From the NCBI GenBank assembly GCA_035350835.1, contig DAOPUX010000001.1, positions 1-31,348 of the forward strand: 31,348 bases of DNA. Direction: 5' to 3'. The stretch comes from Candidatus Woesebacteria bacterium. GTDB taxonomy: Bacteria > Patescibacteriota > Microgenomatia > UBA12405. Position 1 is the first letter of the stretch. Each line of letters begins with the position of its first letter. Below, piece after piece: positions 1-17,129 of the stretch. Position numbers and translations under genes: made by a program. The notes beneath the pieces were generated by a model. That model had not been told where the DNA came from. It was given only the letters and a program-made list of their open reading frames with translations, and searched no databases.

Positions 1-371
1 CCAAAAAACTTGTAAACATCGTCATAAAGTCCGAGTAGTCCAAAACTAATAAAAGTAAAAAATATGATAGAAATTTCACTGGCAATTTTGTAATTTGAGG
101 AAATAAATATTTTGGAAAATTTAATGACAGGGAATAAAACAAAAAATAAGACAGTAACGGCAATGATAACCAAGACTCCCCCACCGACCGGAGTGCCGGT
201 TTTGCTGTTGTGAAACTTATCGAAAATAGGGGTTTTTTTGTTGAGAAAATCGGTAGTTTGCTGCTTTTGCCGCTGAAATTTTAATTTGTAAAGAATGTTA
301 ATAAAAGGAACGACCAAAATACTGGTGATCAAAAAAGAAAACAATAATAGACCAAGATACAAGTGAATCAT
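1..371 (-). CDS. mraY: Phospho-N-acetylmuramoyl-pentapeptide transferase MraY, 5' part only (runs off the window edge)
   Basis: Not in the ORF track; translated by hand from ATG at 371: MIHLYLGLLLFSFLITSILVVPFINILYKLKFQRQKQ...KTGTPVGGGVLVI...FGLLGLYDDVYKFF. Has the MraY K-x-GTP-x-GGG and G-x-x-DD motifs plus hydrophobic helices. Starts 3 nt after the murA stop. Confidence 0.88.
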   Translation of the reverse strand, partial: MIHLYLGLLLFSFLITSILVVPFINILYKLKFQRQKQQTTDFLNKKTPIFDKFHNSKTGTPVGGGVLVIIAVTVLFFVLFPVIKFSKIFISSNYKIASEISIIFFTFISFGLLGLYDDVYKFF

Positions 372-374
372 AAT

Positions 375-1703
375 TTATGTTTTTATATATTTTATGTTAG
401 CACCCAATGAACAAAGTCTCTCGGCTAATTTTTCGTAACCTCTTTCGATATATTCAACTCCGTCAATAATAGAAGTGCCTTCGGCGGTGAGAGCTGCCAG
501 GGTGGTGGAGGCTCCAGCTCGAAGATCGTTGATAACGAAATTGGCCGGTTTTAGCTTGGTGGGACCGTAAATTTTGACTCCGTGGAAATATTCCGGTTTA
601 TCACTTTCAGGATTAAACTGGTAGTAAGTTTCAGGATTATCAACCTTGGGATTGAAAAAATTGGCTTTGACACCCATTTTTTTGAGATTTTCGATGTGTT
701 GGAAACGTGAGGGGTAAACCCGTTCAATAACGGTACTGCAGCCGACAGTTTGGGTAAGAAGGACAGAAAAGATAGCCTGCCAATCGGTCATAAACTCTGG
801 TTCTGGTCCAGTTTCAATATCAATATTTTTTAGAGGTTTAACCCAAGAGACGGTGATTTCGTCTCGGCCGGGGATAATTTTTGCCCCCATGGTTTCAACG
901 GTATTTAAGAAAGTTTGGACAATTTCCGGACTGCTACGCAAAATATTAATGGAGCCCTTGGTGGCAAGAGCAGCACAGGCAAAAGTAACAATTTCATTTC
1001 TGTCGGCGATGACTTGGTGATTGGTGCCTTTAAGTTGGCGGACGCCATTGATAATAATTCTTTTTGGGTCTTTGAGGTCACGGTGAATATTGGCTCCCAT
1101 ATCGTTAAGCATCGATATGAGATCATCAATTTCGGGTTCCTGAGCAGAGTTGTCGAGAATGGTTTCGCCGTGGGCAAAGGCGGCTGCCATAATAACTGTT
1201 TCAGTGACGGTGTGGCTAGGTTTATTGAAAGTATAGTGAACCGCCTTGATCTTGTCGGTATTAAAGGTCATGTTGGTGTTGGTAACTTCAGTTTTTATAC
1301 CCATTTTGTCAAAACAGTCAAAAAGACGATCAAGCGGTCTGGCGCCGAGTTTGTCACCGCCGGGGGTGGGAACGACCGCTTTTCCGCTTCTGACTAACAA
1401 AGGGGCAGAAAACATAAAAGAAGTTCTAGATTTTTCACCAGTGCCGGCAGGAACAGTAGAATTGGTAATTTTTGGGGTAGTAATCTCAAGACAATGTTCA
1501 CCGCAATAGTTGATAGTCGAGCCGATGCTTTTGGCAATACTTTCAGTTATTTTTATGTCAGAAATTTTTGGGATATTAGTTAGCTGAGTGGTTTGAGGGC
1601 TGAGAATGGAGGCGATTATTTGTTTATAGCTGGCATTTTTGGCTCCACGAATAGAAACTTCACCATTTAATTCTTTGCCGCCAGTGACGATATATCTGGA
1701 CAT
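375..1703 (-). CDS. murA: UDP-N-acetylglucosamine 1-carboxyvinyltransferase MurA (Asp in place of the active-site Cys)
   Basis: N-terminal GAKNA, PGGDKLGARP loop, PEIDDL, GPEPEFMTDWQ, DLRAGA and IERGYE motifs typical of MurA. Confidence 0.95.
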   Translation of the reverse strand: MSRYIVTGGKELNGEVSIRGAKNASYKQIIASILSPQTTQLTNIPKISDIKITESIAKSIGSTINYCGEHCLEITTPKITNSTVPAGTGEKSRTSFMFSAPLLVRSGKAVVPTPGGDKLGARPLDRLFDCFDKMGIKTEVTNTNMTFNTDKIKAVHYTFNKPSHTVTETVIMAAAFAHGETILDNSAQEPEIDDLISMLNDMGANIHRDLKDPKRIIINGVRQLKGTNHQVIADRNEIVTFACAALATKGSINILRSSPEIVQTFLNTVETMGAKIIPGRDEITVSWVKPLKNIDIETGPEPEFMTDWQAIFSVLLTQTVGCSTVIERVYPSRFQHIENLKKMGVKANFFNPKVDNPETYYQFNPESDKPEYFHGVKIYGPTKLKPANFVINDLRAGASTTLAALTAEGTSIIDGVEYIERGYEKLAERLCSLGANIKYIKT

Positions 1704-1705
1704 AT

Positions 1706-3103
1706 TTATTTGAATAAATTAATAACTGATTTAAAAATTCGATTGCCTTCGAGTCCACCAGAACTCATGTAGATTAAAATATCATTTGATGTCAGACTAT
1801 GTTTATAATACTGCATAATTTGGGTTTTCAGAGGGAGATAGATTAATTTTGACCCAAGACAGTCACGAAAATCTTTGGCAGTGTTTCTGTTTTTTTTGTT
1901 GATATTATGGTTGAATTTGAGTTGAGTCAGAACGATTTCATCGGCAAGATTAAAGGCGTTTTTTAGTTCATCTAGACTACTTTTGTATTGACTAAAAGAA
2001 GCATGGGCTTGGTAGAGGACTTTTATTTTTTTTTGAGGGTAATGAGAATTTAGGGCAGTCAAAGTTGATTTGATGCGGTTGCCGGATTGGGCAAAATCAT
2101 CAAAAAATAAAATATTTTTGGGTTTAGCAACTAATTCCAGGCGGCGTCTGATGCCGCGATAGGAAAAAATAGACTTGGCAATTATTTTGGGACTGATGGC
2201 AAGATAGTCACTGAGAGCTACGGCGGCAAGAATATTTTCAAAGTTAAATTGGCCAATAAGAGTAGTGTTAGTTTTGATAATGCCTGAAGGGGTGCGGATA
2301 ATGAGGGTGGTAAAATTTTTTTGAGGGATTGTTTTTTCTAAAAAATAATCGGATTCGGGAGTATTGTAGCTGATAACTTTTGCCGGTGAATATTGGGCTA
2401 AACTCAAGGCAGACGGGCTTTGTTGGTTGACAAGAAAGACACCGTCTGACGGCAGTTTTTGAACGAGTTTTTTGAAAGTTTTTAGATTTGAGGCGGCGTC
2501 GGGATAAGAGTCTTTGTGTTCCCAATCGGCGCTGGTGATAATAAGATATTTGGCGGGATAATAAAGGAATTTAGCAGTTTTGTCCAAACCATGAATAGAT
2601 TCGTCACCCTCGACGATAGACCAATTAGAGTCGGTTATTTTGACGGGACTGAATTTATTTTTGGAGCTGCCGCCAAACATATAACTGGGCTTAAGTTTGG
2701 TGTGGTGAAAAATCCAAGCCAAAAGACTGGTAATGGTGGTTTTGCCAAAACTGCCGGCAACAATAATTGAGTTGGGTTTGATAATGTTTTGAGCGATATA
2801 TTTTGTGGCTGACAGGTAAGGAATTTTTTGTTGTTTGATTTGTTTGAATTCTTCTTTGGTATTTTCAAATAGATTATATGAAGAACCGATAATGGCTTGA
2901 TTAATATCATGATCGATGTCAGTGATGTTAATTTTTATATCGGCTTTTTTGAGAGTAGTGCTGATGGGAGGGAATATTTTAGGTTGGTCGGAACCGGTGA
3001 CTCGGGCACCAGCTTGTTTGAGAGCCACGGCTAAACTGGCGGTCATAGTGCCGGCAATGCCTAAAATATGAATGTGAGAGTTAGATAGAGATGGATTTGT
3101 CAT
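1706..3103 (-). CDS. MurC/Mpl-family UDP-MurNAc:peptide ligase with Mpl-like signatures (465 aa from the ATG at 3103)
   Basis: HIHILGIAGT, VTGSDQPKIFPPIST, P-loop AGSFGKTT, DKTAKFLYY, RRRLEL, FDDFA and DILIYMSSGG resemble E. coli Mpl (IHILGICGT, VTGSDANVYPPMST, DKRSKFVHY, RRRLEL, DDFAHH, ILVMSNGG). Start moved from 3166 to the ATG at 3103, which overlaps the upstream stop. Confidence 0.8.
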   Translation of the reverse strand: MTNPSLSNSHIHILGIAGTMTASLAVALKQAGARVTGSDQPKIFPPISTTLKKADIKINITDIDHDINQAIIGSSYNLFENTKEEFKQIKQQKIPYLSATKYIAQNIIKPNSIIVAGSFGKTTITSLLAWIFHHTKLKPSYMFGGSSKNKFSPVKITDSNWSIVEGDESIHGLDKTAKFLYYPAKYLIITSADWEHKDSYPDAASNLKTFKKLVQKLPSDGVFLVNQQSPSALSLAQYSPAKVISYNTPESDYFLEKTIPQKNFTTLIIRTPSGIIKTNTTLIGQFNFENILAAVALSDYLAISPKIIAKSIFSYRGIRRRLELVAKPKNILFFDDFAQSGNRIKSTLTALNSHYPQKKIKVLYQAHASFSQYKSSLDELKNAFNLADEIVLTQLKFNHNINKKNRNTAKDFRDCLGSKLIYLPLKTQIMQYYKHSLTSNDILIYMSSGGLEGNRIFKSVINLFK

Positions 3104-3689
3104 ACTTTGTCCACTGGTGATGGTGGAAATATTCAAAGCCAGGCATATTTCTTTTGTAATAACCATTTTGTGGAGAAAATCGGCCCAAATAACAATAGTC
3201 TAATTTCAGATCGTAACTATCAATAATGGTTTGCAAGACTAATCTGATGGGTAGATTACCATGACTGTAATCCGGGTGGTAAAAAACATAGGCAATATGA
3301 CTGATATCCTTGGAAAAATAACAAATTGAGTAAGCAATAACATTATTTTGTTCATCTTTCCATATATATAGATAATTAAAAATATGTTTATTGAATACAG
3401 TTTTGACAGAGCTTGTGGGAAAATCCCAGCCTAGTTGTTTAATCCAAGAGAAAATTTGTTTGGTAATATCCGAAGTTAGTTTAAAATTTTTAAGAGGTAT
3501 TTTTTGATAACTGAAGCCGGCAGTTTTGTTGAGAATGCGACGGTTTTCGGAACTGAGCTTAAATTGTTTTAGATTTGATCGGCAGCTGGTGTCGGAATAC
3601 CAAAAGTTGGTTTGATTTCTTTGGGGCAGCAGCCCTTGGGAATAATTGATTTCAGGAGACTGATTATTATTAAGATTATATTGAGGCAT
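3081..3689 (-). CDS. Arginyl-tRNA-protein transferase (ATE)/Bpt-like GNAT-fold aminoacyl transferase, compact 202-aa form
   Basis: R-x-NL-x-x-F-x-x-S-x-ENRRIL, YVFYHPD, LVLQTI, LDYCYLG, YYK and GFEYF-x-x-x-x-W match ATE_C/Bpt motifs (RRILKRN, YTFYDPD, ILWQI, VYLGYW, YK, ELF-x-x-x-x-W). Start placed at ATG 3689, overlapping the murE stop; the ORF-track extension to 3872 lies inside murE. Confidence 0.72.
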   Translation of the reverse strand: MPQYNLNNNQSPEINYSQGLLPQRNQTNFWYSDTSCRSNLKQFKLSSENRRILNKTAGFSYQKIPLKNFKLTSDITKQIFSWIKQLGWDFPTSSVKTVFNKHIFNYLYIWKDEQNNVIAYSICYFSKDISHIAYVFYHPDYSHGNLPIRLVLQTIIDSYDLKLDYCYLGRFSPQNGYYKRNMPGFEYFHHHQWTKYDKSISI

Positions 3690-4980
3690 CGGCTTGGCGT
3701 AATTTAAAAGCAGTTCTAAAGGCTTCGGCTTCGGACCAGGGATATTCAGTGTTGCCGTCAAGAATGGTGGTTTCATGGCCTTTACCCATGGCAATGACAG
3801 TATCTTTGGCTTGAGCCAGACTGATAGCAAGATTAAAAGCGTCCTGACGGTTGGGAATGTTGAAATAAACAAAATTATCTTTATTGTTTTTAATTATTTT
3901 TTTGATTTCGGATAAAGGTTGTTTGTCATCGATTAAAACTGAATTTCGGGAAATACCACTAATGATTTGTTGGTTTATTTTGTCAATATCTTCGTTTCTG
4001 GTGTCATCGGCAGTAACAAAGGCAATATCTGCCAGTTGAGAGACGACGGAACCCATAATGGGACGTTTGGTTTGATCGCGACCGCCGGTAGCGCCAAAAA
4101 TAGTTAGAATCCGACCTTGTCTAACCTGATGGAGAGAGGAAAGAGTGTTTTTGATGGCGTTGGGGGTGTGGGCAAAGTCGATCAGGGCAAGTATGTCTAA
4201 TTGATTGACGACTTCTTCGCGGCGACCCTTAGTATTGGGAAAATTTTTGACAACTTCCAGAGCATATTCGGGGTTGATTTTAAGCTGGTCGATAATGGCA
4301 AAAGCAGCTAATATATTGTAGATTTGGTAATAATAAAGACTATCAGTTTTTATTTTAAGGCTATTAAGATTAAAGGTGAGTGAATTTTTGTCTAAGTTGA
4401 TTTTTTTAGCCTGATAATCTGATTTGTGTTCAATGCCGTAGGTTAAATATGGTTTGTTGCCAAGATTGTGTTTGATGATTTGATATGAAGCGTCGTCTCG
4501 GTTGAGAATAGAGATTTTTGAATGAGAAAAAATAAGACTTTTGGTTTCGATGTAGTGTTGCATATCACGGAAATAATCCAGATGTTCGTGGGAAGTGTTG
4601 GTGATAACAGAAACTTCAAAATTGCAGCCGTAATAGCGGAATTGATCTAGGGCATGGGCGGTAATCTCGCAAACTACATGGGTAACACCAGCATCAACCA
4701 TTCTTTTGAATATTTTTTGAATAACTGAGGGGTCGGGGCTGGTCATATGGAGGCCGGTATCAATTTCCTCGTTGCCATATTTGGCGCCGATGGTGGTAAT
4801 AACGCCGGCGTTTATGCCTGATTTTTTGAGAATTTCATACAACAGGATTGAAGTGGTGGTTTTGCCGTCAGTGCCAGTGACACCAACGAGAACCAATTTT
4901 TTGGAAGGTTGATGGTAGTAGTGACGGTAGAAAATACTTTTGGGGAGATGAAAGAGGCGGTTTTTGATTTTTTGCCACAT
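3676..4980 (-). CDS. murE: MurE-family UDP-MurNAc-dipeptide:diamino acid ligase lacking the N-terminal domain (434 aa from the ATG at 4980)
   Basis: VGVTGTDGKTTT, TSPDP, EITAHALDQ, TNTSHEHLDY, IDFAHTPNA, FGATGGRDQTKRPIMG, TADDTRNED and GKGHE motifs. Lies directly after ftsI. Confidence 0.88.
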   Translation of the reverse strand: MWQKIKNRLFHLPKSIFYRHYYHQPSKKLVLVGVTGTDGKTTTSILLYEILKKSGINAGVITTIGAKYGNEEIDTGLHMTSPDPSVIQKIFKRMVDAGVTHVVCEITAHALDQFRYYGCNFEVSVITNTSHEHLDYFRDMQHYIETKSLIFSHSKISILNRDDASYQIIKHNLGNKPYLTYGIEHKSDYQAKKINLDKNSLTFNLNSLKIKTDSLYYYQIYNILAAFAIIDQLKINPEYALEVVKNFPNTKGRREEVVNQLDILALIDFAHTPNAIKNTLSSLHQVRQGRILTIFGATGGRDQTKRPIMGSVVSQLADIAFVTADDTRNEDIDKINQQIISGISRNSVLIDDKQPLSEIKKIIKNNKDNFVYFNIPNRQDAFNLAISLAQAKDTVIAMGKGHETTILDGNTEYPWSEAEAFRTAFKLRQADASI

Positions 4981-4994
4981 TTTGAATGATTTAA

Positions 4995-6644
4995 TTATAA
5001 CAAACCATTGATTTTTGAGGCCATTTTGAACCAAATAGGGGCGGCTGTATTTGACCCCCAGGATGATGATTTAGGGTTGTTGATGGTGACGATCATGGTG
5101 AACTTTGGTTGATAACAGGGCCAAAATCCGATATATGAGCCGATGGTGGCAGAGTCAGTATAGCCGCCCTTGACGGCAACTTGGGCAGTGCCGCTTTTGG
5201 CGCAAACTTCAAGATCTTTGGGTTTAAAGACAGAAACGGCTCCATTTTCGACAGCGTATTTTAGGATTGATTTAATTTCCAAAACGGAATCATGACTAAA
5301 GACGCGAGTTTCTTTTTTGGATTTGATGGGATAAACTTTACCTATTTGGTCGGAAAGGGATGTGGCAACTTTGGGATTAACCAAGACGCCGTCGTTGGCA
5401 ATAGTATTAAATGCCTGAAGCATATTAATTTCCGTAACCACAATCCCCTGTCCGAATGAAGCTGTGGCTAGGTCAATTTCGGGCCAATTATTTTTTATGG
5501 TGGGCTTAACTTCTCCCTGAAGATCGATGCCGGTTTTTTGGTTTAAGCCTAAACTTTGGTAGTATTTTAGAAAATTATTTAAACCTAATTGTCGGATAAT
5601 ATTACTCATCCCGATGTTGTCGGAATTTTTTATGATGTCTTTGAGAGTTGATTCGGGGTGGGTGGATTTGTCCCAATTATTGATAGTGTATTGACCGATG
5701 GTAAGCGGTTGGGAACAATTGTGGCAGATATAATCGGGCTGAATTGATTTTTGGTCGAGAGCCATAGTAACAACTATGGGCTTAAAAATAGATCCAGGTT
5801 CAAATAGATCTGAGATGGCTGGATTTCTTGAAGCACTGGGGGTGGCCACAGTTGAAGCGGTTTGACTGGTCATAGCAACTATTTGGCCAGTTTTGGTCTC
5901 CATAACGATAATCGAACCGGAATCGGCCTGATATTGTTCTATTCCTTGAGATAATTCTATTTCGGCCTGATGTTGAAAATTACGGTTAATGGAAGTGAGG
6001 ATAGTTTGACCATCAATTGAGGGAGAACTCCAGCTTTTTTTGGTAAGGATGGTTTTGCCGGTGGCGTCTTGAGGCGACCAAGTAAAACCGGTTCGTCCGC
6101 TAAGCTGTTTGTTGTAATAAGCTTCAAGTCCGCCATATCCGGTTTGATAACCATAGTTGTCATTGGCAACAAATCCCAACATATTTGAAGCTAAACTGTT
6201 TTCGGGGTAATAACGAGAACTATATTTTTTGAAAATAAGACCATTGATTTCTTGAAGCTGGTTTTTTTGAGGTTCGGTAAAATTAGTGGAAAGGTCAACC
6301 CATTTTTGGTTGGAATTTGATTTGAAATTATTAAGATTGGGATTTTGTTTGGTAAATTCGGGATAAACAAGATCGATTTTATTTAAAATATCATCCAAGT
6401 TTTCGGTCATATTTGGTTTGTAGAGAGAAAGACGATAATTGGTTTGGTTTAGGGCCAAGGGAAAATTATCTGAAGAAAGTATTTGGCCGCGGGCAGGGTA
6501 TTTGGTTTCAAGTTTGTAGGTCTGACTGAGAGCCTTTTCTTTGAGTTCCGGGCTTTTGACCACCTGCCAATAAAAAAGTTTGCCAGTAACAGCCAAAAAA
6601 CAAAGAATAAATGAAAATAATAAAATACGATAGCGTTGAGTCAT
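4995..6644 (-). CDS. ftsI: Class B penicillin-binding protein (FtsI/PBP3-like transpeptidase)
   Basis: N-terminal TM helix, RGQILS and RYYPEN motifs; SxxK (EPGSIFKP), SxN (NSDNIG) and KSGTAQ motifs. Follows rsmH and the ftsL-like gene. Confidence 0.88.
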   Translation of the reverse strand: MTQRYRILLFSFILCFLAVTGKLFYWQVVKSPELKEKALSQTYKLETKYPARGQILSSDNFPLALNQTNYRLSLYKPNMTENLDDILNKIDLVYPEFTKQNPNLNNFKSNSNQKWVDLSTNFTEPQKNQLQEINGLIFKKYSSRYYPENSLASNMLGFVANDNYGYQTGYGGLEAYYNKQLSGRTGFTWSPQDATGKTILTKKSWSSPSIDGQTILTSINRNFQHQAEIELSQGIEQYQADSGSIIVMETKTGQIVAMTSQTASTVATPSASRNPAISDLFEPGSIFKPIVVTMALDQKSIQPDYICHNCSQPLTIGQYTINNWDKSTHPESTLKDIIKNSDNIGMSNIIRQLGLNNFLKYYQSLGLNQKTGIDLQGEVKPTIKNNWPEIDLATASFGQGIVVTEINMLQAFNTIANDGVLVNPKVATSLSDQIGKVYPIKSKKETRVFSHDSVLEIKSILKYAVENGAVSVFKPKDLEVCAKSGTAQVAVKGGYTDSATIGSYIGFWPCYQPKFTMIVTINNPKSSSWGSNTAAPIWFKMASKINGLL

Positions 6645-6898
6645 TAAAAATTTATGTTGATAGACTTAATAATGGGTTTGAGGCTGGCAGAAGGAGTGCT
6701 TTGGACAAGATGGGTAATAGAGGTAAGGTCGGCGACTTGTTTCCAAGCTGATTCAACTTCTAGCTGAAGCTGGTCGGCTTCTTTTTGGTATAAATCAAGC
6801 TGGTTGTTTTGAGTGACAATACTACTGGAATAGAAAAAAGAAAAAACTATTTGAACTATGAGACTGAGAATGATTATGCCGGAAAATATTTTAGACAT
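6644..6898 (-). CDS. Putative FtsL-like cell-division protein (single TM helix plus coiled coil)
   Basis: 84 aa with an N-terminal hydrophobic helix and heptad-like QLDLYQKEADQLQLEVESAWKQVADL. Occupies the ftsL position between rsmH and ftsI with TAATG overlaps. Mostly positional evidence. Confidence 0.55.
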   Translation of the reverse strand: MSKIFSGIIILSLIVQIVFSFFYSSSIVTQNNQLDLYQKEADQLQLEVESAWKQVADLTSITHLVQSTPSASLKPIIKSININF

Positions 6899-7773
6899 TA
6901 AACTATTTTATACGATCTAAGGATACTTGAGCGGGATAGAGGGTTGGATTTTATCTCCGATAGAGACGGTTTGATAAATTTTTGTTTTTGAACCAAGTGT
7001 TTGTTTCGGTTGATAAATTGTTTAACTAATCTATCTTCGCCGGAATGAAAAGTAATAATAACTACGGTACCTTTGGGCTTAACAACTTCAAGGCTTTGGG
7101 ATAATAATTGGGTTAAATTTTTATCTTCCTGATTAACGGCAATCCTGAGACTGAGAAAAATTTTGGTGGCGGGATCAATTTTGGTTTTAATGTGGCGGTC
7201 ACGGTAATAATCCCTGATGATATCGGCTAATCTAAGACCGTCTTTGATGGCAGATTTTTGCCTTTGTTTAATAATTTTTAGGGCAATGGGTTTGCTATAT
7301 AATTCCTGACCAAGTTTGGAAAAGATTTGAAACAGTTGGTCAAATGAGTAGGTGTTGATGATTTCTTCGGCGGTGAGAGTTTGAGTGTCGGGGTTAAGAC
7401 GCATATCTAAAGATTGGGAATCGTTGAATGAAAAGCCTCGATTGATGCCGGTCTGCTGATTTTGACTTAAACCCAAATCAGCAATTAGACCGTCAACCTT
7501 GGATTTGATTTTTTGCTTAACGACGGTGTTTAACTGATTAAAGTTTTGGTTGATTGGAAAAAAATTTGGGGATAAATTATTGTCTTTTATTCGGTCAGCG
7601 GCAATTTTTAGATTGTTGGGGTCAAGATCAAAACCGTAAACAATACCGCCCCGCTTGAGAATTTCTAGGGTGTGTCCGCCGTGACCGAGGGTGGCGTCGA
7701 CATAAATATGGTGTGGTTTGACACAAAGAGTATCCACGGCTTCTTTGAGTAAAACCGGGGTATGAAAATTCAT
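6898..7773 (-). CDS. rsmH: 16S rRNA (cytosine1402-N4)-methyltransferase RsmH/MraW
   Basis: HTPVLL, YVDATLGHGGHT, DLGLS, RGFSF, LDMRL, LRIAVN, ITFHSGED and NPLSRS motifs. Confidence 0.95.
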   Translation of the reverse strand: MNFHTPVLLKEAVDTLCVKPHHIYVDATLGHGGHTLEILKRGGIVYGFDLDPNNLKIAADRIKDNNLSPNFFPINQNFNQLNTVVKQKIKSKVDGLIADLGLSQNQQTGINRGFSFNDSQSLDMRLNPDTQTLTAEEIINTYSFDQLFQIFSKLGQELYSKPIALKIIKQRQKSAIKDGLRLADIIRDYYRDRHIKTKIDPATKIFLSLRIAVNQEDKNLTQLLSQSLEVVKPKGTVVIITFHSGEDRLVKQFINRNKHLVQKQKFIKPSLSEIKSNPLSRSSILRSYKIV

Positions 7774-8471
7774 TAGTTGATCAAATAATCCCCTACCAGA
7801 GTGTTGGTATTTTCTTTGGTGACGGTTTCGGGTGATATTTTAGTTATTTTAGCTGTGCCGCTGCCGCTGGAAAAGACCGAGTAATAAGGCCGATAGTTTT
7901 TGATGAGAATGAAAAAATCATTTTTGGTGGTGGTAGTGGCGGTGATAGATAAATTTTCTAGACTGAGAGATAATCCGCTATTTTTTTTGATATCAGCTGA
8001 AGTGGTCAAAGTGAATGGAGTCTCAAAGGAGGCAGTTTGATTGTCGTTGGTGTAGAAAGTCAGAGAAAGAACTCCGCCAACAACGTCTTCATCAAATTTG
8101 TATTTGCAACCATTAGTGCAGCTGGCAGTTCCCAAAAGTAGGTCTTTTTCGAAATTATTGGAAGTTAGTTTGACGGTATCACCGACACCTTTTTCCATTT
8201 CTAAACCGTTGTCTTTGGCAGAATAAATGAGTTCATATTCGACTTGGCTGATGCTGGCAGGAATTTTGTCAACTTTTAGTTTGAGCTCGTGACCATCAGC
8301 ACGAGGGATAAGAGAAATTATAGGTTTGTCGCTGTCAGTAAGAGTCAGTTCTTTGGGAGCAGAGTTTTTGGTTTCGGCGGGAGTTTTGGGAGCTTTTTTG
8401 CCGCAGCCGGAAAGAAGAAGAGAAGAAAGAAAAATTATTAAGGTAAAGGAAATGGTTTTGAACTTATTCAT
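7773..8471 (-). CDS. Hypothetical lipoprotein
   Basis: Basic N-terminus, hydrophobic core and lipobox LSGC (Cys23), then a P/K/T-rich tether and a predicted beta-rich domain with CTNGC. No function recognised. Confidence 0.6.
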   Translation of the reverse strand: MNKFKTISFTLIIFLSSLLLSGCGKKAPKTPAETKNSAPKELTLTDSDKPIISLIPRADGHELKLKVDKIPASISQVEYELIYSAKDNGLEMEKGVGDTVKLTSNNFEKDLLLGTASCTNGCKYKFDEDVVGGVLSLTFYTNDNQTASFETPFTLTTSADIKKNSGLSLSLENLSITATTTTKNDFFILIKNYRPYYSVFSSGSGTAKITKISPETVTKENTNTLVGDYLIN

Positions 8472-8472
8472 A

Positions 8473-9792
8473 TTAGTTATTTAACCTTTTTTCAAGCCAG
8501 GTGTCAATTTCATCGGATTTGAGACGGATTTGCTCCATAGTATCGCGGTCCCGAATAGAGACAGTGTTATCTTCTAGGGTTTGATAATCAACTACCAGAC
8601 ACCAGGGGGTGCCGATTTCGTCTTGGCGGCGGTATTTTTTGCCAATACTGCTACTGTCATCCCAGTCGACAGCATATTTTTGGTTTAACTGGTTAAAAAT
8701 AGTTTCGGCTTTGGTAATTAGTTCCGGTTTGTTGGCGGCTAGGGGGAGAATCGCCATTTTGTAAGCGGCAATTTTGGGGTTAATTTTAAGATAGGTTCGG
8801 ATGTCTCCGGTTGAAGTGGTTTCTTCTTGGTAGGCATCAAGCAGGAGAAAAAAGAAGCTGCGGTCAACTCCGCCGGAAGTTTCAGTTATCCAGGGGATAT
8901 ATTTTTCTTGAGTTTGAGGGTCGGTATAGGAAAGGTCTTGTCCGCTAAATTTGGCATGTTGTCCAAGATCGTAGTCAGATCGCCAGTGAATTCCTTCCAT
9001 TTCTGCCCAACCCCAAGGAGCTTGGTATTCAATGTCAAAGGCTTTTTTGGCATAGAAAGCCAATTCGTCTTTTTGATGTTGGCGGAAGCGGAGGTTTTTG
9101 GGATTATTAAAATATGTTTGATACCAAGCCATGCGAGTTTCTTTCCAGTATTCATACCATTTATCCATTTCTTTGGGATGGACAAAATATTGAATGTCCC
9201 ATTGTTCAAATTCGCGGGTGCGATAAAGAAAATTTTTAGGAGTAATTTCGTTTCTAAAAGCTTTGCCAATTTGGGCAATACCAAAGGGAATTTTTATGCG
9301 GGTGGAGTCAACGATATTTTTGAAATCCAAATAAATGGTCTGGCAGGCTTCACCCCGGAGATAAGCATGTTGTTTTTCGCCCTCGATAACACCAATTTCG
9401 GTTTCAAACAAAATATTATATTTTCGACCTTGAGTAAATTGACCACCACAATCGGGGCATTTGCTGGGGTCGTCAAGAAGATCGGGGCGAAAACGTTTGT
9501 GGCATTTTTTGCATTCAACCATAGTGTCGGCAAAATTTTTGACATGACCTGAGGCTTGCCAGACGGTGGGGTGAGTGATGATAGAACCATCAATGCCGAC
9601 AATATCGCGGCGGCGGACAACATTTTCCTGCCACCATAAATTCTTCCAGTTAAGTTTCATTTGGGAACCGATAGGGCCGTAGTCATAAAAACCTTGGACA
9701 CCTCCGTAAATTTCTGAGTTTTGAAAGATTATTCCCCGACGTTTGCAGAGACTGACAATTTTGCTAACAAGATCGCTTTGATTAGTCACCAT
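8473..9792 (-). CDS. glyQS: Glycine--tRNA ligase, homodimeric (GlyRS-1) type
   Basis: KRRGIIF, YDYGP, CxxC...CxxCGG insertion, PFGIAQIGKAFRNEI, REFEQ, GGVDR, IGKKYRRQDEIGTP and RDRDTMEQ motifs. Preceded by a glycine T-box. The GTG at 9789 is an alternative start. Confidence 0.93.
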   Translation of the reverse strand: MVTNQSDLVSKIVSLCKRRGIIFQNSEIYGGVQGFYDYGPIGSQMKLNWKNLWWQENVVRRRDIVGIDGSIITHPTVWQASGHVKNFADTMVECKKCHKRFRPDLLDDPSKCPDCGGQFTQGRKYNILFETEIGVIEGEKQHAYLRGEACQTIYLDFKNIVDSTRIKIPFGIAQIGKAFRNEITPKNFLYRTREFEQWDIQYFVHPKEMDKWYEYWKETRMAWYQTYFNNPKNLRFRQHQKDELAFYAKKAFDIEYQAPWGWAEMEGIHWRSDYDLGQHAKFSGQDLSYTDPQTQEKYIPWITETSGGVDRSFFFLLLDAYQEETTSTGDIRTYLKINPKIAAYKMAILPLAANKPELITKAETIFNQLNQKYAVDWDDSSSIGKKYRRQDEIGTPWCLVVDYQTLEDNTVSIRDRDTMEQIRLKSDEIDTWLEKRLNN

Positions 9793-9795
9793 ATA

Positions 9796-9931
9796 TCCTT
9801 AAAAATTAATATTAATTTTTAGGGACGAAAATTTCTTTCCGCGGTTCCACCCTATTTGACAGATTATTTTTGAACATCCGTCCACTTTATAAATTTTCAA
9901 CTATCGAAGTGCCTTCTTCGTTCGTAGTTGA
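9796..9931 (-). promoter_or_regulatory. Glycine T-box riboswitch, ultrashort Stem I, probably acting on translation
   Basis: Minus strand: Stem I TCAACTA-CGAA-CGAAG-[AAGGCA]-CTTCG-A-TAGTTGA (9931-9897). Stem III GACGGAT/ATCTGTC (9882-9858). T-box AAT-AGGG-TGGAACC-GCGGAAA-GAAA-TTTTCGT-CCCT (9856-9821). Alternative hairpin 9825-9796 covers AAGGA just before the glyQS start. Confidence 0.88.
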
Positions 9932-9944
9932 TAATAATAGGTAT

Positions 9945-9953
9945 ATTTTACCA
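9945..9953 (-). promoter_or_regulatory. Extended -10 promoter (TGgTAAAAT) for the T-box/glyQS leader
   Basis: TG-n-TAAAAT on the minus strand about 13 nt upstream of Stem I. No recognisable -35. Confidence 0.55.
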
Positions 9954-9972
9954 TCAAAGAACAGTGATAGGA

Positions 9973-11772
9973 TTATTCAAATAGATATATTTTCTGATTT
10001 TGGTTGTCGATAAAAGATATTTCTGCTTTTTGAGGATAGTGAAAAAATTCCAATCCTGGAATTTTTCTGGTCTCATCAAAGTTTTTGATATTTACATTCC
10101 CTACCCAGCGATAATATTTGTCTGGGACACTAAACCGTAGCCTATCATTAATCGTTTGTTGGGGAATTTTAGTAATATCTTGAATTTGAGTGAGATTTAG
10201 TCCCCAGTCAGACATTGATCTGGGGGCCATAAATGCTTCAATAGCGGCTATTTGGTTTAATTTAGGGACAATATTAATTTGATATTCTGGTTTGTATCTA
10301 TTAAATAGATAATTCCAATCCCAAATTAATTTCCACTGGTTATTGATTTTTTGGAAGATTATGTTGCTTTTATTTTCGAGAGGTCCATATCGGGTTTGGT
10401 AGGTGGTATTGAGCACTCCCGTAACAATATCTTGATCGAATTTGATAGAAGTTATATTTGATTCGATACTTCTGGTGCCAATTTTATTAAGAAAATTTTC
10501 ATAAGAATTTATAAAGTAGTCTTCGTTCATTAAGTTTCGTTGGTGTAGAGATATAGACCTATAAAGCTCTCGATAATTTCTGGTATTAATAAATCTAGTA
10601 GTGCTCTCTATGGTTCCTTGATATGGTTGTTTAATAACAGAAGTGTAATAGAAAGGAATGTTTAAAATAATTAAAAGATAAATTAAAAAAGGTTTTTGCT
10701 GCAAACAAATAGTAATAATAAGACAAAAAGTAGGAATTATTGGCATTAAATATCTTGGAAAGAATGGTATAAAGCAATTAATTAATATAAATGATAGTGA
10801 AAATAGACACAGATAAAGAGTTAATTTATTTTTGTTTTTAATAGAAGTAATTAGTAGGACAATCAGGAGTAGTAGTCCAGCCGTTAGCATTGGGGACCAG
10901 TCACCAAGCGTGCCAGGTTGAGCCCCAGCCCAAAATCCTTGATAACGATTTATTAAGATACCCTTGAGTTGATTAAAATAATCTATATGACTATTACCTT
11001 GTCCAATATAAAATCTGATAGGCTTTTCATGAAGTCTTAACCATGGAATTGGATTTGGGTGGTAGATAAAGTAGGATATAAAAGAAAAACCGTAGCCTCC
11101 TAAAGTGCTAAAAGCATAAAGTAGTATTTTTTTAATTTTTTTAGTTTTGGTGGTTAAGATAAAAATTAGACCAATTAAAAATATCAAGGGAGAATAAACG
11201 CCTATCTTGCATCCGGTGGCAATACCTAAAAATATTCCGGCAAATATTAGTTTTTGAAGATTATCTAATTGAAGATATTTAAGAAAAAATAAAAGATGAA
11301 CCAGAAAAAAGAACATTAAAGGCAGGTCAAGCATGGTTTCTCTGACTTGGGTAGAAATAAAAGGAGATGTAGCCATGAGAAGTAGTGTAAGGAGAATTGT
11401 GTGGGTGTTTTTTTGGAAAAATATTTTAGAAATTAAATGTAAAATAATAAAAGATGAAAGATAAAAAATAATGCTTATTATGTAAGGATTGCTAAAAAAC
11501 CGTTCAGCTAATCCATAAAGCAATTTGGCAAAGGGTGGAACTTCGTAATTGATATTAAATGGATTTTCACCGAAGGCTAGCCTGTAACCAACAAATTTAT
11601 ATAAATCTCCATCACCTATACCGCGAACACTGTTGGGAATATTCCATTGGGAGTGGTAATACCAGTTTTCGTAGTATTCAGGCTCATATTTGTAAAAAAA
11701 TATCTGTCGGGAATAATAAAAAGTTAAAGAAATAAAAATCAGAATTAGTGTTTTTATAATGTTGTTTTTCAT
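9973..11772 (-). CDS. GT-C (ArnT/PMT-like) polytopic glycosyltransferase with a C-terminal NTF2/MecA_N-like soluble domain
   Basis: First ~375 aa contain many TM helices, an acidic first external loop (GDGDLY, NYEVPP), and ETMLDLP, ATGCK and PRYLMP segments. The C-terminal ~220 aa include YRELY...YQTRYGPL...QWKLIWDWNYLF. Confidence 0.62.
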   Translation of the reverse strand: MKNNIIKTLILIFISLTFYYSRQIFFYKYEPEYYENWYYHSQWNIPNSVRGIGDGDLYKFVGYRLAFGENPFNINYEVPPFAKLLYGLAERFFSNPYIISIIFYLSSFIILHLISKIFFQKNTHTILLTLLLMATSPFISTQVRETMLDLPLMFFFLVHLLFFLKYLQLDNLQKLIFAGIFLGIATGCKIGVYSPLIFLIGLIFILTTKTKKIKKILLYAFSTLGGYGFSFISYFIYHPNPIPWLRLHEKPIRFYIGQGNSHIDYFNQLKGILINRYQGFWAGAQPGTLGDWSPMLTAGLLLLIVLLITSIKNKNKLTLYLCLFSLSFILINCFIPFFPRYLMPIIPTFCLIITICLQQKPFLIYLLIILNIPFYYTSVIKQPYQGTIESTTRFINTRNYRELYRSISLHQRNLMNEDYFINSYENFLNKIGTRSIESNITSIKFDQDIVTGVLNTTYQTRYGPLENKSNIIFQKINNQWKLIWDWNYLFNRYKPEYQINIVPKLNQIAAIEAFMAPRSMSDWGLNLTQIQDITKIPQQTINDRLRFSVPDKYYRWVGNVNIKNFDETRKIPGLEFFHYPQKAEISFIDNQNQKIYLFE

Positions 11773-12375: not shown

Positions 12376-14301
12376 TTAGAGGGTAAATCTAATGGTTTTG
12401 TCGGCAACCCAGGAGAAGTTTTGCTTGGAGCCGTTAATTATCAGCTCATAATCAACCGGTTTGGTGCCGGGTTGTTTTTGGAGCATAAGGGTGTAAACGG
12501 AACCAATTTGAGCGCCGGAAGTATATTCGATTGAGGTTTTGAGGTTTGATTGGGGGTTAAGCCCAAACTTGTTGCCATAAAAACCTTCAAAGACCTGTTT
12601 ATTTAACTCTTCATACTGGACAGTTTCAACTTCAGAACCGGTCATTTTGGTGAGTTTTGAACCTTTGGGGGTATAGAAACGGAAGATATCTCGGTAGGTA
12701 GAAGCGTTAAGACACAGACCGCCTTTTTCTAGATTGCAATTGGAACCAGGGGCGGAATTGGTATAAGTAATATTTATTTTGTGTTGAGCTTGACCGTTTT
12801 TGATAGTGATGTCGTGTTTGATTTTTTGAGTAATGAAAATATTGCTTTTGGCGCTGGCAAAATTGGTGTCATTAAGGTGGAGATAGTCAACCGAGGATTC
12901 GGTGTCGTATATTTTTCCGGTAATGTTGGCCAGGTCACCCATTTTTTGATTGTCTTCGTTGGGAAAGTAAAAAAGGACGTGTTTTTCGTTGATACTTTTG
13001 AAGCCGGCTTGAATCAACTGACCCATTTTGTTTTTTTCCGAACCCATAACGTTGGCAAGGAGGGCGGACATAAGCGGGTTCATAAAATCTTTTCGATTTT
13101 TTTCGATATAATCCCGAGGGCGACCGGACATCCATTGCATTTCGTAAATAATTTGAGGACAGCCATAACACCTTTTGTCAGGTTCGGTAGTAAAAGTGCC
13201 GACCCGGGTGTCTAGTTTACCCAAAACAGCAACCATATCAACCAAAAGTTGGGTGTCGATGGCGATAATGGCATCAAATTTTTCCTTACTGCCGGTAGCT
13301 TTGAGATATTGGTCCAAAAATATTTTGGCATCAGTGGGAAAATCGGGAGAAAGATTGCTGTCGCGGAGATTAAGATAAGGAACATTGATATGGTAACTTT
13401 TGATAAGCCTGGGAGCGGGAGTGCGGCTGTTGATGCGGTCGTCAAGATCATAAATATTGCTGGCAGTGCCGGGCTTAACTTTGCCATTATCGACCGTCAT
13501 GGTGCTGTAAGCAGTCCAAAAACCACCACTAGGTCGGAGCTCACCATCATTTTGAAAGATCATGAGATATTTTCGAGGAGAATCTTTGCCCAAGAGCCAA
13601 GAAACTTTGGACAAAAGCGGCTTGCCGTCTTTTATAAGTTTATGGGATTGAGATAGCAGCTCCTGAGCTTTGGTAATATTAGATTTGATTTGGTAGCCGC
13701 GGAATTCTTCGGGATATCTGGAGGGATTTATTTCTCCGGCCGATTTGTCAATTTCGGCAATTTTGGCTTCGATGGTGTCTAAATACGGAATCAAACCTTC
13801 AACAGATTGGGTCAAAAAGGCGATTCTGTCTTGAGTGGTTTCTTCGCTGGAAGCGGCAGAGCCGGTCATACCCAAAAAATCTTTGTAGGGTTCGATGGCT
13901 TTTATGATAATATCGCTGGTATCAAGGCTGTTTTTGGCAATACTGATGGTTCGGAGACCATCTTGGTAGTAATTATTGATTATAGGAAGGAAGCCGATTG
14001 GTTTTAGTTTAAAATAGGTGTCTTCGATAGATTTAGTGTGATCTTTGATGACACTGAGATTAATTTTGATTTTTTCCAGATCTTTTTCGTTGATGGATTG
14101 TTTGAGATGATCGACTTCGGTTTTGGCAGCTTCGATTTTGGTCTGGAGTTCCTTGGCGGGGAGATAGACTACAAAAAATAGTCCGAGAGCAAGGATAAAA
14201 ATAAAAGCAAAAATGATAGCAATAATTTTGGGCCATCGCCGATTACCCAGCTTTACTTTCTTACCCGGTTTGGTGTTGGCGGTTTTGGTGATCAAATCCA
14301 T
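12376..14301 (-). CDS. DUF4012 domain membrane-anchored protein
   Basis: N-terminal TM anchor, long helical region, then YLMIFQNDGELRPSGGF, RDSNLSPDFP and FDAIIAID motifs characteristic of DUF4012. Confidence 0.8.
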   Translation of the reverse strand: MDLITKTANTKPGKKVKLGNRRWPKIIAIIFAFIFILALGLFFVVYLPAKELQTKIEAAKTEVDHLKQSINEKDLEKIKINLSVIKDHTKSIEDTYFKLKPIGFLPIINNYYQDGLRTISIAKNSLDTSDIIIKAIEPYKDFLGMTGSAASSEETTQDRIAFLTQSVEGLIPYLDTIEAKIAEIDKSAGEINPSRYPEEFRGYQIKSNITKAQELLSQSHKLIKDGKPLLSKVSWLLGKDSPRKYLMIFQNDGELRPSGGFWTAYSTMTVDNGKVKPGTASNIYDLDDRINSRTPAPRLIKSYHINVPYLNLRDSNLSPDFPTDAKIFLDQYLKATGSKEKFDAIIAIDTQLLVDMVAVLGKLDTRVGTFTTEPDKRCYGCPQIIYEMQWMSGRPRDYIEKNRKDFMNPLMSALLANVMGSEKNKMGQLIQAGFKSINEKHVLFYFPNEDNQKMGDLANITGKIYDTESSVDYLHLNDTNFASAKSNIFITQKIKHDITIKNGQAQHKINITYTNSAPGSNCNLEKGGLCLNASTYRDIFRFYTPKGSKLTKMTGSEVETVQYEELNKQVFEGFYGNKFGLNPQSNLKTSIEYTSGAQIGSVYTLMLQKQPGTKPVDYELIINGSKQNFSWVADKTIRFTL

Positions 14302-14307
14302 ACTCTT

Positions 14308-14316
14308 AGTTTAACA
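14308..14316 (-). promoter_or_regulatory. Extended -10 (TGtTAAACT) 6 nt before the DUF4012 start codon
   Basis: TG-T-TAAACT-aagagt-ATG in a 28-nt intergenic gap. No SD present. Confidence 0.45.
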
Positions 14317-14329
14317 AAGATGAAACAAT

Positions 14330-14971
14330 TTACCAACGAGAGATCATAGACATGGGAGTTTTGAGAATGATGAGAAGTTCCTGTCTAATAGATTGATTGC
14401 GGATGTATTTTGAGTCGAGTTTGGCTCGTTGTTCAAAATTAAGTTCGTTGCGGCCGGAAGTTTGCCAAAGACCGGTAATGCCAGGTTTGACGGATCTAAC
14501 ATCGTCAATATATTTTTTGGTGGTAGGATATTTTTTTTCGTACTCTTGAAGTTCTTCTTCACGATAGGCTCTAGGTCCGACTAAACTCATTTCTCCTTTG
14601 AGAACATTGACCAATTGAGGAAATTCATCAACTGATGAAGCTCGGATAATTTTGCCTATGGGTGTGATTCGAGGGTCTTCGGACATAGGTAATTTCCAGC
14701 CGCCGTCTTTGTATTTTTTCCATAACTCAGGATAATTTTCGCGGAGACGTTTGTCATTGTCGCCAGTATACATAGAGCGGAATTTATACATCCAAAATTC
14801 TTTATTTCCTTTGGTGACCCGCTTTTGTTTAAAAAAAATAGGACCAGGTGAAGTAATTTTGACAAGAATGGAAGTGAGTAAAAATATGGGAGAAAAGATA
14901 ATCATAAGAAAGACAGAGCTGATAATGTCAAGAATTCTTTTGAAGACGTTGAAGTAGAGTTTGTCTGTCAT
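14330..14971 (-). CDS. Monotopic phosphoglycosyl transferase (bacterial sugar transferase, PglC/WcaJ C-terminal type)
   Basis: KRILDII, SPGPIFFKQKR, YKFRSM, DPRITPIG, DEFPQLVNVLKGEMSLVGPR and KPGITGLWQ motifs. Confidence 0.93.
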   Translation of the reverse strand: MTDKLYFNVFKRILDIISSVFLMIIFSPIFLLTSILVKITSPGPIFFKQKRVTKGNKEFWMYKFRSMYTGDNDKRLRENYPELWKKYKDGGWKLPMSEDPRITPIGKIIRASSVDEFPQLVNVLKGEMSLVGPRAYREEELQEYEKKYPTTKKYIDDVRSVKPGITGLWQTSGRNELNFEQRAKLDSKYIRNQSIRQELLIILKTPMSMISRW

Positions 14972-16056
14972 GGTTTTTTGAGAAAAAATGATTTATATTT
15001 TTTGTTTTTGACCATTTTACCGATTAGGTCGCGAACATGATAACTGTCGTCAAGATGGCAGATAAGAAGACCATCATCAGTGTCAATGACGGCTAAATTA
15101 CTAACACCGACCAAGCCAATAAGCTTATTTTTGGATCCGTTTATTAAACAATTAGTTGAGTTGTGGGCTAGATAGTTGGTTTGGGAATTGAGGACGGCGT
15201 TGTTGTCGGAGTCTTTGTCTGATCGTTGGTGAATGGATTTCCATTCGCCAATATCGCTCCAATCAAAACTAGCAGGGATAACATAGATTTGATCGCTTTT
15301 TTCGGAGACGGCCCGGTCAATGGCTAAGTCGGGTGATTTGGCGTAAACCTTAGCAATAGTTTTTTTGTCAAGTTGAGAATTGACTAATTGTTGATAAAGT
15401 CGGAAATATTCTGGTTGGAGTTTTTCAACTTCATTGACTATATCAGTTAGGGTAAAAGTATAAATGCCAGAGTTCCAGAGAGCGCCTTTTTTGATGAGAT
15501 TTTGGGCGGTGTCTTTGTCTGGTTTTTCGACAAACAAACTGACGTTGGACAATGGTTGATTTTTTTGGCGGGGAAGAATGTAGCCGTAGGAAGTGTTGGC
15601 AAAAGCAGGCTTGATACCAATAGTGATAATCCGATGGTGATTTTGGGCTAGTTTTTGGGAATTGGCAATATCTTTTCTAAAACTGATTATTTTTTTGATG
15701 TAGTGATCAGCAGGAGTGGTGGTAACCACGGCATCAGGATTAAGTTTTTGGATGTGGGCTAAGGCCAAAAGAATGGCCATGGTGGTATTCTTTTTCTCCG
15801 GCTCATAAATAAAATTTTGGGGTGGAAGTTTCTTGCCCAAGATTTTGTCAATTTTGGCTTGGTATTTTTGGTTGGAGACAATAAAAATGTTTTTTCCGGG
15901 ACAGAATTTTTGGCAACGAGAAAAAGTTTGTTCTAAAAGAGTTTTTTTGCCTAAAATTTTGAGAAATTGTTTAGGATTGCCCGCATGTGAAAGCGGCCAT
16001 AAACGGGGACCACTACCGCCGCAGAGAATGACTACATACTGGTTTGATTTAGCCAT
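14968..16056 (-). CDS. manC: Mannose-1-phosphate guanylyltransferase (GMP domain only)
   Basis: VILCGGSGPRLWPLS...PKQFL, EPEKKNT, PADHYI, YGYI, FVEKPD, WNSG and FDWSDIGEW motifs. No C-terminal PMI cupin. Confidence 0.9.
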   Translation of the reverse strand: MAKSNQYVVILCGGSGPRLWPLSHAGNPKQFLKILGKKTLLEQTFSRCQKFCPGKNIFIVSNQKYQAKIDKILGKKLPPQNFIYEPEKKNTTMAILLALAHIQKLNPDAVVTTTPADHYIKKIISFRKDIANSQKLAQNHHRIITIGIKPAFANTSYGYILPRQKNQPLSNVSLFVEKPDKDTAQNLIKKGALWNSGIYTFTLTDIVNEVEKLQPEYFRLYQQLVNSQLDKKTIAKVYAKSPDLAIDRAVSEKSDQIYVIPASFDWSDIGEWKSIHQRSDKDSDNNAVLNSQTNYLAHNSTNCLINGSKNKLIGLVGVSNLAVIDTDDGLLICHLDDSYHVRDLIGKMVKNKKYKSFFLKKP

Positions 16057-17129
16057 AGTTGGTTGATTGTTTGCTTAAAGTTTAGCATAAATTTTTTGCG
16101 GGAAAATTTGGCGGCATTTTGAACACAGTCGGCGGGAGAAAAATTTTTGGAATCAAATTTGGCTAGGGTTTGGGCCAAAGAATCAGCTGTTTGATGATCA
16201 AAAAATACACCGGTTTGGTGATTGATGACGGTTTCGGTTAGACCACCTTGGTTGAAGGCAATGACGGGTTTGCCACAGGCTTGAGCTTCAAGTGGGGTAA
16301 GACCAAAGTCTTCAATTTGGGGGCAGATGAGAGCTTGGCAGTTTTGATATAGAGAAAGAAGTTTTTTGGGAGAAACTTTGCCGGCAAAAATAACTTGAGA
16401 GTTGGAATTTTGGGCGGCTAATTTGGTTAATCTATAATAATCACGGCCCTGACCGACAATAATCAATTTTTGATTTAGCTGGTGGCAGGCGCGGATAGCA
16501 AGGTCAATTTTTTTGTGTTCGACTAGCCGGGAAACAACTAAAAAATAAGGTGAAACGGTAGGATTGGTTTTGGGGATAAAAAATGAAGTGTCAACTCCGG
16601 GATAAATGACTTTGGCCGGTCTGTTGTAGGCGGATTTTATCCGGCGGCGGACGGTTTGGGAATTGCACAGACAGTAATCCGGTCGCTGCCCGTAAATAAA
16701 ATCGGTTTTTTGATAGTGTTTAAGAATGGGCTTAAGAAATTTAAACTGTTTTGGAGTTTGGTAAAGATAACGGTTAACATTGTGAAAATAACAGACGAAC
16801 AAAGTTGACGGCGGGGTCAAAAGAGAGTGACCGACGGTAGAAGTGGTGGAAATAACAATATCAAATTGAGAAAAATCAAATTTTTCTAGGGCCAGGGGGT
16901 AAAGAGGGGTGTAGATGATGGGGTTTTGGTGACTTAGGGGAAGATGGTTAATAAAAGAAGGGATTACTTTGATTGAGGATGGCAGCCAAGAGGTTTTTTT
17001 GGGGTGATAGTTTAGGGTAAAGACGGTTGCCTGGGGAAAAATTTGTAAAATATCAAGAAGGACCTTTTCGGCGCCGCCCCACTGGTTGAGCCAGTCGTAA
17101 AAAACAGCCACCCTGGGTTTAGCGGTCAT
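16032..17129 (-). CDS. Glycosyltransferase family 4
   Basis: DWLNQWGGAEKVL, VSRLVEHKKID and EDFGLTPLEAQACGKPVIA (EX7E) motifs. Confidence 0.92.
   Translation of the reverse strand: MTAKPRVAVFYDWLNQWGGAEKVLLDILQIFPQATVFTLNYHPKKTSWLPSSIKVIPSFINHLPLSHQNPIIYTPLYPLALEKFDFSQFDIVISTTSTVGHSLLTPPSTLFVCYFHNVNRYLYQTPKQFKFLKPILKHYQKTDFIYGQRPDYCLCNSQTVRRRIKSAYNRPAKVIYPGVDTSFFIPKTNPTVSPYFLVVSRLVEHKKIDLAIRACHQLNQKLIIVGQGRDYYRLTKLAAQNSNSQVIFAGKVSPKKLLSLYQNCQALICPQIEDFGLTPLEAQACGKPVIAFNQGGLTETVINHQTGVFFDHQTADSLAQTLAKFDSKNFSPADCVQNAAKFSRKKFMLNFKQTINQLWLNQTSM

Follow-up and report, generated by a model that had tools for sequence, protein, structure and literature searches.

What is a relative of protein-tagging aminoacyl-tRNA transferases doing in a cell-wall gene cluster? 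The question is raised by a 31,348-nt stretch of a Candidatus Woesebacteria genome of the Candidate Phyla Radiation (CPR; GenBank assembly GCA_035350835.1, contig DAOPUX010000001.1, positions 1 to 31,348; the whole stretch is referred to here as the window). On its minus strand, a gene for a 202-amino-acid (aa) protein resembling ATE1 and Bpt, the bacterial aspartate/glutamate leucyl-tRNA-protein transferase with ATE_N and ATE_C domains, occupies 3081..3689 (the ATE-like gene). It is flanked by murE (3676..5034; 323 bits on TIGR01085, above cut-off) and by a gene for a 465-aa Mur ligase with Mur_ligase N, M and C domains (1706..3103). An initial annotation of this DNA read the protein as a candidate non-Fem enzyme of peptidoglycan aminoacylation in the place of murF. 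We have found that the ATE-like gene has its conserved partner in the downstream ligase, and that genomes carry either the ATE-like gene with an Mpl-like ligase or canonical MurC with MurD, never both. It is probable, and we hold this with good confidence, that the pair functionally substitutes for MurC and MurD. That it does so as a two-enzyme module at the start of stem-peptide synthesis, by the particular route proposed below, is a claim for which we consider the case about evenly balanced. A full-text literature search, with most subscription journals outside its coverage, did not turn up any account of an ATE/Bpt-like enzyme that takes part in Mur-pathway synthesis.

The ATE-like protein and its predicted fold

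The open reading frame (ORF) runs from ATG 3689 to a TAA stop at 3083-3081. A longer listed ORF, from TTG 3872, falls inside murE; the homologues are 196-209 aa long and alignable from residue 1, which supports the start at ATG 3689. With this start, the gene overlaps the end of the murE ORF at 3676 by 14 nt and its 3' end overlaps the ligase, which begins with ATG at 3103, by 23 nt, so the overlaps given in the initial annotation were reproduced from the ORF coordinates. The same holds for its description of the protein: all of the motifs that it quoted were found (SSENRRIL, AYVFYHPDY, LDYCYLG and GYYK), Pfam gave no match to ATE_N (PF04376), and the sequence contains neither CxxC nor CC. The later half of ATE_N (R37, SSENRR) is apparently kept in a Cys-less form. 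ATE_C (PF04377) was matched at 24.4 bits (E 4.6e-5), just below the gathering score of 25, and many close homologues have a precomputed PF04377 match. The NCBIfam arginyltransferase (Bpt) equivalogs NF002341-NF002346 aligned with residues 35-199 at 18.5-29.4 bits, far under their cut-offs of 170-267, and Pfam and NCBIfam searches of the protein gave no match to the FemAB domain (PF02388).

An AlphaFold (AF2) model of the protein was built on a 70-sequence alignment and had a mean predicted local distance difference test (pLDDT) score of 94.1 and a predicted template modelling (pTM) score of 0.90. When the model was searched with Foldseek against the PDB, the best matches were ATE1 from human, yeast and K. 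lactis, with template modelling (TM) scores of 0.65-0.68 (8tzv, 8e3s, 7tif, 7wfx), followed by the aminoacyl-phosphatidylglycerol (aa-PG) synthase domain of MprF and by FemX (TM ~0.5). Against AFDB/Swiss-Prot the top 30 matches were all Bpt (TM 0.68-0.79 over residues ~2-201, nearly the whole protein). The comparison proposed in the initial annotation thus came out on the side of ATE1 and Bpt, and the model has the ATE fold derived from that of the GNAT acetyltransferases. The structural alignments begin at Bpt residue ~30-50, from which the protein is predicted to be a Bpt-like fold that has lost its first, Cys-bearing segment of ~30 residues. It has SSENRR-like, FY(D)P, YxYLG and YK motifs in common with Bpt. 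ATE1 differs in its length of ~500 aa and in having a C-terminal domain and an ATE_N rich in Cys.

The motifs of the transferases (SSENRR, HYAY-FY, YxYLG and YK) are invariant or nearly so over the 70 sequences, which share 20-87% identity. Residues G19, R37, R51, G169, Y178, K179 and W193 are invariant in the family; S47-E48-N49-R50, H131, F136, Y137 and Y167 are near-invariant. In a profile alignment Y178-K179 align with Y303-K304 of yeast Ate1. The lysine at position 304 is common to FemX and the aa-PG synthases and has been proposed to stabilize the reaction intermediate (PMC9351520). The Arg-binding pocket of Ate1 is formed by S255, S273, E277 and Y289 (PMC9351520); in the same profile (hidden Markov model) alignment, which is weak (E ~0.05), these align with I132, L150, T154 and C166, none of which is acidic, E277 being matched by T154 and the other positions being apolar. 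A pocket of this kind would fit a small or apolar donor, although the point is only suggestive because the alignment is weak.

The partner ligase and the absence of MurC and MurD

The ATE-like family was present in 107 of the 132 genomes of the window's order, and murE, the ATE-like gene and the ligase were adjacent in all 40 loci examined there, down to 33% identity. An even sample of 401 genomes was used to follow the family through the phylum. It was found in 19 of these, distributed over 7 families, none of them from other orders of the same class. In the other classes, the ligase is the next gene after the ATE-like gene in 15 of 16 loci and the adjacency to murE is mostly lost. Three more distant members (24-27% identity) also adjoin a Mur ligase with a MurC/Mpl-type N-domain, which precedes the ATE-like gene in two cases and follows it in one. 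In two genomes (G006, 645 aa; G439, 688 aa) the two genes are fused into a single ORF, with ATE_C placed ahead of the Mur ligase N, M and C domains. The G006-type fusion is represented by seven clustered proteins that come from several sources, so it is not an assembly slip; Ca. Dojkabacteria is a source name met with here. Linkage to mur genes, which the initial annotation had named as a test, thus persists far beyond close relatives. The partner that remains constant is the Mpl-type ligase, and the emphasis of that annotation on murE could not be sustained outside the order.

On the NCBIfam models, the ligase of the window scored 232 bits for murC (TIGR01082; cut-off 335.1) and 181 bits for mpl (TIGR01081; cut-off 388.7). 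The ATE-paired ligases as a group reached 170-261 bits on murC and 151-253 on mpl, compared with 353-416 and 164-199, respectively, for canonical MurC of MurD-containing CPR genomes. A phylogenetic tree was inferred by maximum likelihood under LG+C20 with posterior mean site frequencies (PMSF) from 29 ATE-paired ligases, 7 canonical CPR MurC, and MurC, Mpl and MurD of E. coli. All 29 formed one clade (97/92), sister to E. coli Mpl (99/99) and apart from every MurC in the tree, including the MurC of genus g4 from the window's own family. By model score as well as by position in the tree, then, the ligase falls outside MurC. Its best PDB sequence match is 3hn7, the Mpl of Psychrobacter arcticus (PMC3060825). 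Signatures of the Mpl type were present in the alignment, namely GSDx-x-YPPxST, an extra loop before KFxxYxP, and MS(S/N)GG (MSSGG in the window ligase). EPRSNT and DDFAHH, which lie among the Mpl C-domain residues proposed for peptide binding (PMC3060825), are not kept. Sequence comparison suggests that the partner is Mpl-like rather than a canonical MurC, while differing in these stretches from Mpl itself, the ligase that joins UDP-MurNAc (MurNAc, N-acetylmuramic acid) to L-Ala-gamma-D-Glu-mDAP (mDAP, meso-diaminopimelate). In one family (f76), the ATE-paired Mpl-like ligases are 695-697 aa long (L070:4851-6938, minus strand, and L071:3880-5973, plus strand, from genomes G219 and G283) and are extended at the C-terminus by ~250 aa that match no Pfam or NCBIfam model.

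Four of the ATE-positive genomes consist of few contigs (G086, G098, G439 and G323; 91-100% complete); they have MurE, MurF and the Mpl-like ligase as their only Mur ligases, with FolC in addition in G323; the same three are found in the window's own genome, which is 72% complete. Its murF-like gene lies on contig C22 and scored 176 bits on TIGR01143, below the cut-off of 288.6. The position after murE is indeed that of murF in E. coli, as the initial annotation had noted. A replacement of murF is ruled out by the murF-like gene elsewhere in the genome of the window, and complete relatives also have MurF. The gene does belong to cell-wall synthesis, but the enzymes that are missing are MurC and MurD.

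The murD model was matched above cut-off in 299 of the 401 genomes of the phylum sample (one of them, G285, is unpublished, and none of the conclusions rests on it) and in none of the 19 ATE-positive ones, whose best murD E-values of 1e-15 to 1e-26 are cross-hits. Within the order, full-length MurD (>330 bits) occurs only in family f5 and in two genomes (G025 and G026) of genus g4, from the window's family, and these are the groups that lack the ATE-like gene (0/13 in family f5, 0/3 in genus g4). Matches to murC above cut-off are likewise confined in the order to genus g4 and family f5; the only other strong match, of 295 bits in G126, is the ATE-paired ligase itself. The exclusion is given as counts with no P-value, the genomes being related to one another; the pattern recurs across seven or more families and also within a single one. 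MurE was above cut-off in every ATE-positive genome tested. Its retention means that UDP-MurNAc-dipeptide still has to be made, and in genomes with neither MurC nor MurD it must be made by something else. Five complete genomes of the phylum sample (G190, G472, G405, G184 and G355) have three or four Mur-ligase matches, no true MurD and no detectable ATE-like gene. Five genomes with neither MurD nor the ATE-like gene were searched again with the profile of the family, with E-values of up to 1 admitted, and a single 16-bit match was obtained.

A proposed dipeptide route and its alternatives

How might such a pair make UDP-MurNAc-dipeptide? Aminoacyl-tRNA transferases acylate an amine, and the acceptors of ATE1 and Bpt are N-terminal Asp or Glu (PMC9351520). 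In UDP-MurNAc-L-Ala only a carboxylate is available, which precludes direct action of the ATE-like enzyme as a MurD. A tRNA-borne residue could instead be placed on the alpha-amine of glutamate; ATE1 and Bpt recognize an N-terminal amine beside an acidic side chain. We propose that the ATE-like enzyme would move a small amino acid from aminoacyl-tRNA onto the alpha-amino group of free glutamate (D or L) to give an X-Glu dipeptide. The donor would most likely be L-Ala from Ala-tRNA, with Gly or Ser also possible; there are stem peptides in which position 1 is Gly or Ser (PMC8844914). The Mpl-type ligase, with ATP, would then join the preformed dipeptide to UDP-MurNAc, yielding UDP-MurNAc-X-Glu, and the retained MurE and MurF would finish the pentapeptide. 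An Mpl-type ligase could load such a dipeptide; L-Ala-D-Glu is a weak substrate of a characterized Mpl (1.4 per min; PMC3060825). Each chemical step of this route, as well as its donor and its acceptor, is what we infer from the genes. The predicted use of free glutamate, in place of a protein, would set the ATE-like enzyme apart from Bpt, as does its pairing or fusion with a Mur ligase in place of the ClpS pathway; in both, the acceptor would presumably be a free amine beside an acidic group. The dipeptide route would explain together why the genes are paired and fused, why the ligase has an affinity to Mpl, and why MurC and MurD are lost and MurE and MurF kept. A precedent for a non-canonical residue 2 made without glutamate racemase is provided by MurD2/MurL of Xanthomonas, in which L-Glu is added and then epimerized (PMC5808125). 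That system still uses a MurD-family ligase and MurC, without tRNA, whereas the ATE-positive genomes have no MurD-family gene.

Several observations weigh against the dipeptide route. The pocket of ATE1 for the acidic residue lies in ATE_N around R80, within a GFRRSG motif; the corresponding stretch of the ATE-like protein reads GLLPQR, and acceptor recognition may accordingly differ from that of ATE1. The placement of the paired ligases beside Mpl depends on just one reference Mpl, whose branch is long, and the ligase could add L-Ala alone. A complex prediction for the ATE-like protein and the ligase scored 0.00, which speaks neither for nor against binding. About ten sampled genomes have several Mur-ligase matches but no MurD and no detectable ATE-like gene, so other solutions or losses exist, and these genomes may have another solution for residue 2. 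Searches of G086, G098, G323 and G439 detected no glutamate racemase, D-amino-acid aminotransferase or L-Ala-D/L-Glu epimerase, the epimerase search (enolase superfamily) giving weak matches only, in frames of ~425 aa that were read as enolase. G025, which has MurD, equally lacks all three of these D-Glu enzymes, so their absence does not discriminate.

Nearest to the initial annotation is a Fem-like branch transferase, which would carry an amino acid from aminoacyl-tRNA, perhaps Gly-tRNA, onto position 3 of the stem peptide in UDP-MurNAc-peptide or lipid II. FemX, FemABX and MurM are GNAT-derived aminoacyl-tRNA transferases of peptidoglycan precursor synthesis with an equivalent conserved Lys (PMC9351520), and the superfold that FemX shares with the ATE-like protein, the place of the gene beside murE in the division and cell wall (dcw) cluster within the order, and the glyS gene with a probable T-box at the head of the same run all agree with such a function. 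The structural likeness to FemX is nevertheless lower than that to Bpt or ATE1, the Fem enzymes build a side branch rather than the start of the stem peptide, and separate FemAB-family genes (PF02388) are present in four of the ATE-positive genomes and also in G025, an ATE-negative relative, with a fragment at a contig end in the window's genome. The role therefore already has a candidate, one that does not track the ATE-like gene, and the aminoacylation of cross-bridges or lipid II by a non-Fem enzyme, as first annotated, finds little room. Outside the order the adjacency to murE is lost while the Mpl-like ligase is still adjacent or fused; the linkage to glyS is conserved within the order only and was not seen in the 16 distant loci; and a branch transferase would leave the strict exclusion of MurC and MurD unexplained. 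We regard it as decidedly unlikely. A Bpt-like N-degron enzyme that tags proteins with N-terminal Asp or Glu and merely happens to be located in the dcw cluster would suit the nearest characterized family by fold and the arginyltransferase label that some sources give to homologues. Such an enzyme would be expected neither to lack the ATE_N Cys motif and miss the NCBIfam equivalog cut-offs ~6- to 14-fold, nor to stay paired or fused with a Mur ligase across classes and gene orders in genomes whose distribution excludes MurC and MurD. None of the genomes searched for ClpS (PF02617) was found to have it (G000, G086, G098, G323 and G439), and we consider this explanation very improbable.

CPR bacteria are thought to be host-dependent, and the pair could also be a salvage module, in which the Mpl-like ligase would re-attach peptides scavenged from host peptidoglycan and the ATE-like enzyme would use Ala-tRNA to add L-Ala to D-Glu at an N-terminus, such as that of gamma-D-Glu-mDAP. 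The preference of ATE and Bpt for N-terminal Glu fits this scheme, as does the failure to find a D-Glu source in the genomes, and in known bacteria Mpl is a recycling enzyme (PMC3060825). MurE would be dispensable for salvage, yet it is retained in the ATE-positive genomes and is operon-linked in the whole order. The paired ligases, moreover, have not conserved EPRSNT, which is among the proposed peptide-binding residues of Mpl, and the presence of the paired ligase in genomes without MurC and MurD argues for de novo synthesis. Salvage thus seems unlikely to us. The fusions and the tight coupling would equally fit a non-catalytic accessory or regulatory domain, with the ligase or an unrecognized enzyme performing both the MurC and the MurD steps, and catalysis by the ATE-like protein is, after all, something that we infer. 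The near-invariance of the transferase motifs, including the Lys aligned with Lys304 of Ate1, is typical of an active enzyme, and we accord a purely accessory role a very low probability.

Genomic setting and meaning of the proposed module

All genes of the run are encoded on the minus strand, in the order probable T-box, glyS, a gene for a 232-aa lipoprotein-like protein, rsmH, a small ORF, ftsI, murE, the ATE-like gene, the ligase, murA and mraY; the order from murE to mraY is kept across the order, whose members close to the window carry homologues with the source name Candidatus Shapirobacteria. Downstream of the ligase, MurA is encoded at 375..1703 (398.8 bits on TIGR01072), and the N-terminal part of MraY at 3..371 runs off the window, with a weak TIGR00445 match and a conserved syntenic homologue. 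Upstream of murE are genes for a class B penicillin-binding protein (FtsI-like; 4995..6644) with Transpeptidase and PBP_dimer domains and for RsmH/MraW (6898..7773; Pfam Methyltransf_5, 254 bits). The initial annotation had glyQS and a glycine T-box heading the run. A glycyl-tRNA synthetase of the dimeric type is confirmed at 8473..9792 (565 bits on NF003211). The T-box was seen only below the Rfam gathering score: a probable, divergent T-box leader at 9818..9984, upstream of glyS, matched RF00230 over the full model length at 49.8 bits (gathering score 93; E 2.6e-10), and a scan of the whole window at the gathering threshold gave no match. The SAM-I/IV riboswitch that had been annotated upstream of metK (29825-29938, plus strand) was not confirmed, no SAM riboswitch family being found at gathering score in the same scan.

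The 232-aa protein encoded between glyS and rsmH (7773-8471, minus strand) has a lipoprotein-like N-terminus and no Pfam domain; its gene occupies the usual place of mraZ, a position conserved across the order. Farther along the window, a long surface-polysaccharide cluster (12376-28792, minus strand) comprises genes for a DUF4012 protein, a Bac_transf priming transferase, a mannose-1-P guanylyltransferase-like protein, about nine glycosyltransferases of families GT1, GT2 and GT4, a Wzy_C-like polymerase and a hexapeptide acyltransferase. It is followed by a gene for a 314-aa protein (28835-29779, plus strand) that has only an LPG_synthase_TM domain, of the MprF flippase type, without an aminoacyl-PG synthase domain. 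The locus (window 1-9990) is present at >99% identity in metagenomes of sludge, anaerobic digesters, manure and wastewater from ~14 studies. It also occurs in three runs labelled RNA-Seq, which are probably DNA, and in one true metatranscriptome as a single 203-nt contig at 3658-3860.

MurC, MurD, MurE and MurF are treated as the universal route to the stem peptide and as a set of antibiotic targets. We tentatively propose, and would put the likelihood a little short of even, that a substantial set of CPR/Patescibacteria lineages (the Shapirobacteria order, Dojkabacteria-like bacteria and others, with at least seven GTDB families sampled) start the stem peptide without MurC and MurD, by means of a Cys-less ATE/Bpt-type enzyme that makes X-Glu and an Mpl-derived ligase. 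If this is true, these bacteria would possess a natural bypass of two Mur enzymes, assembled from a recycling ligase and a family of enzymes that tag proteins, and the seemingly incomplete peptidoglycan pathway in many CPR reconstructions would be explained. In the core of stem-peptide synthesis, as opposed to a branch, it would be the first step to depend on tRNA, and it would tie cell-wall synthesis directly to the charged tRNA pool. The ATE-like protein would be the first enzyme of the ATE family with a small-molecule acceptor, extending the chemistry of the family from proteins to a free amino acid. The module would then stand as a clear instance of non-orthologous displacement, one that could be tested with four proteins in purified form.

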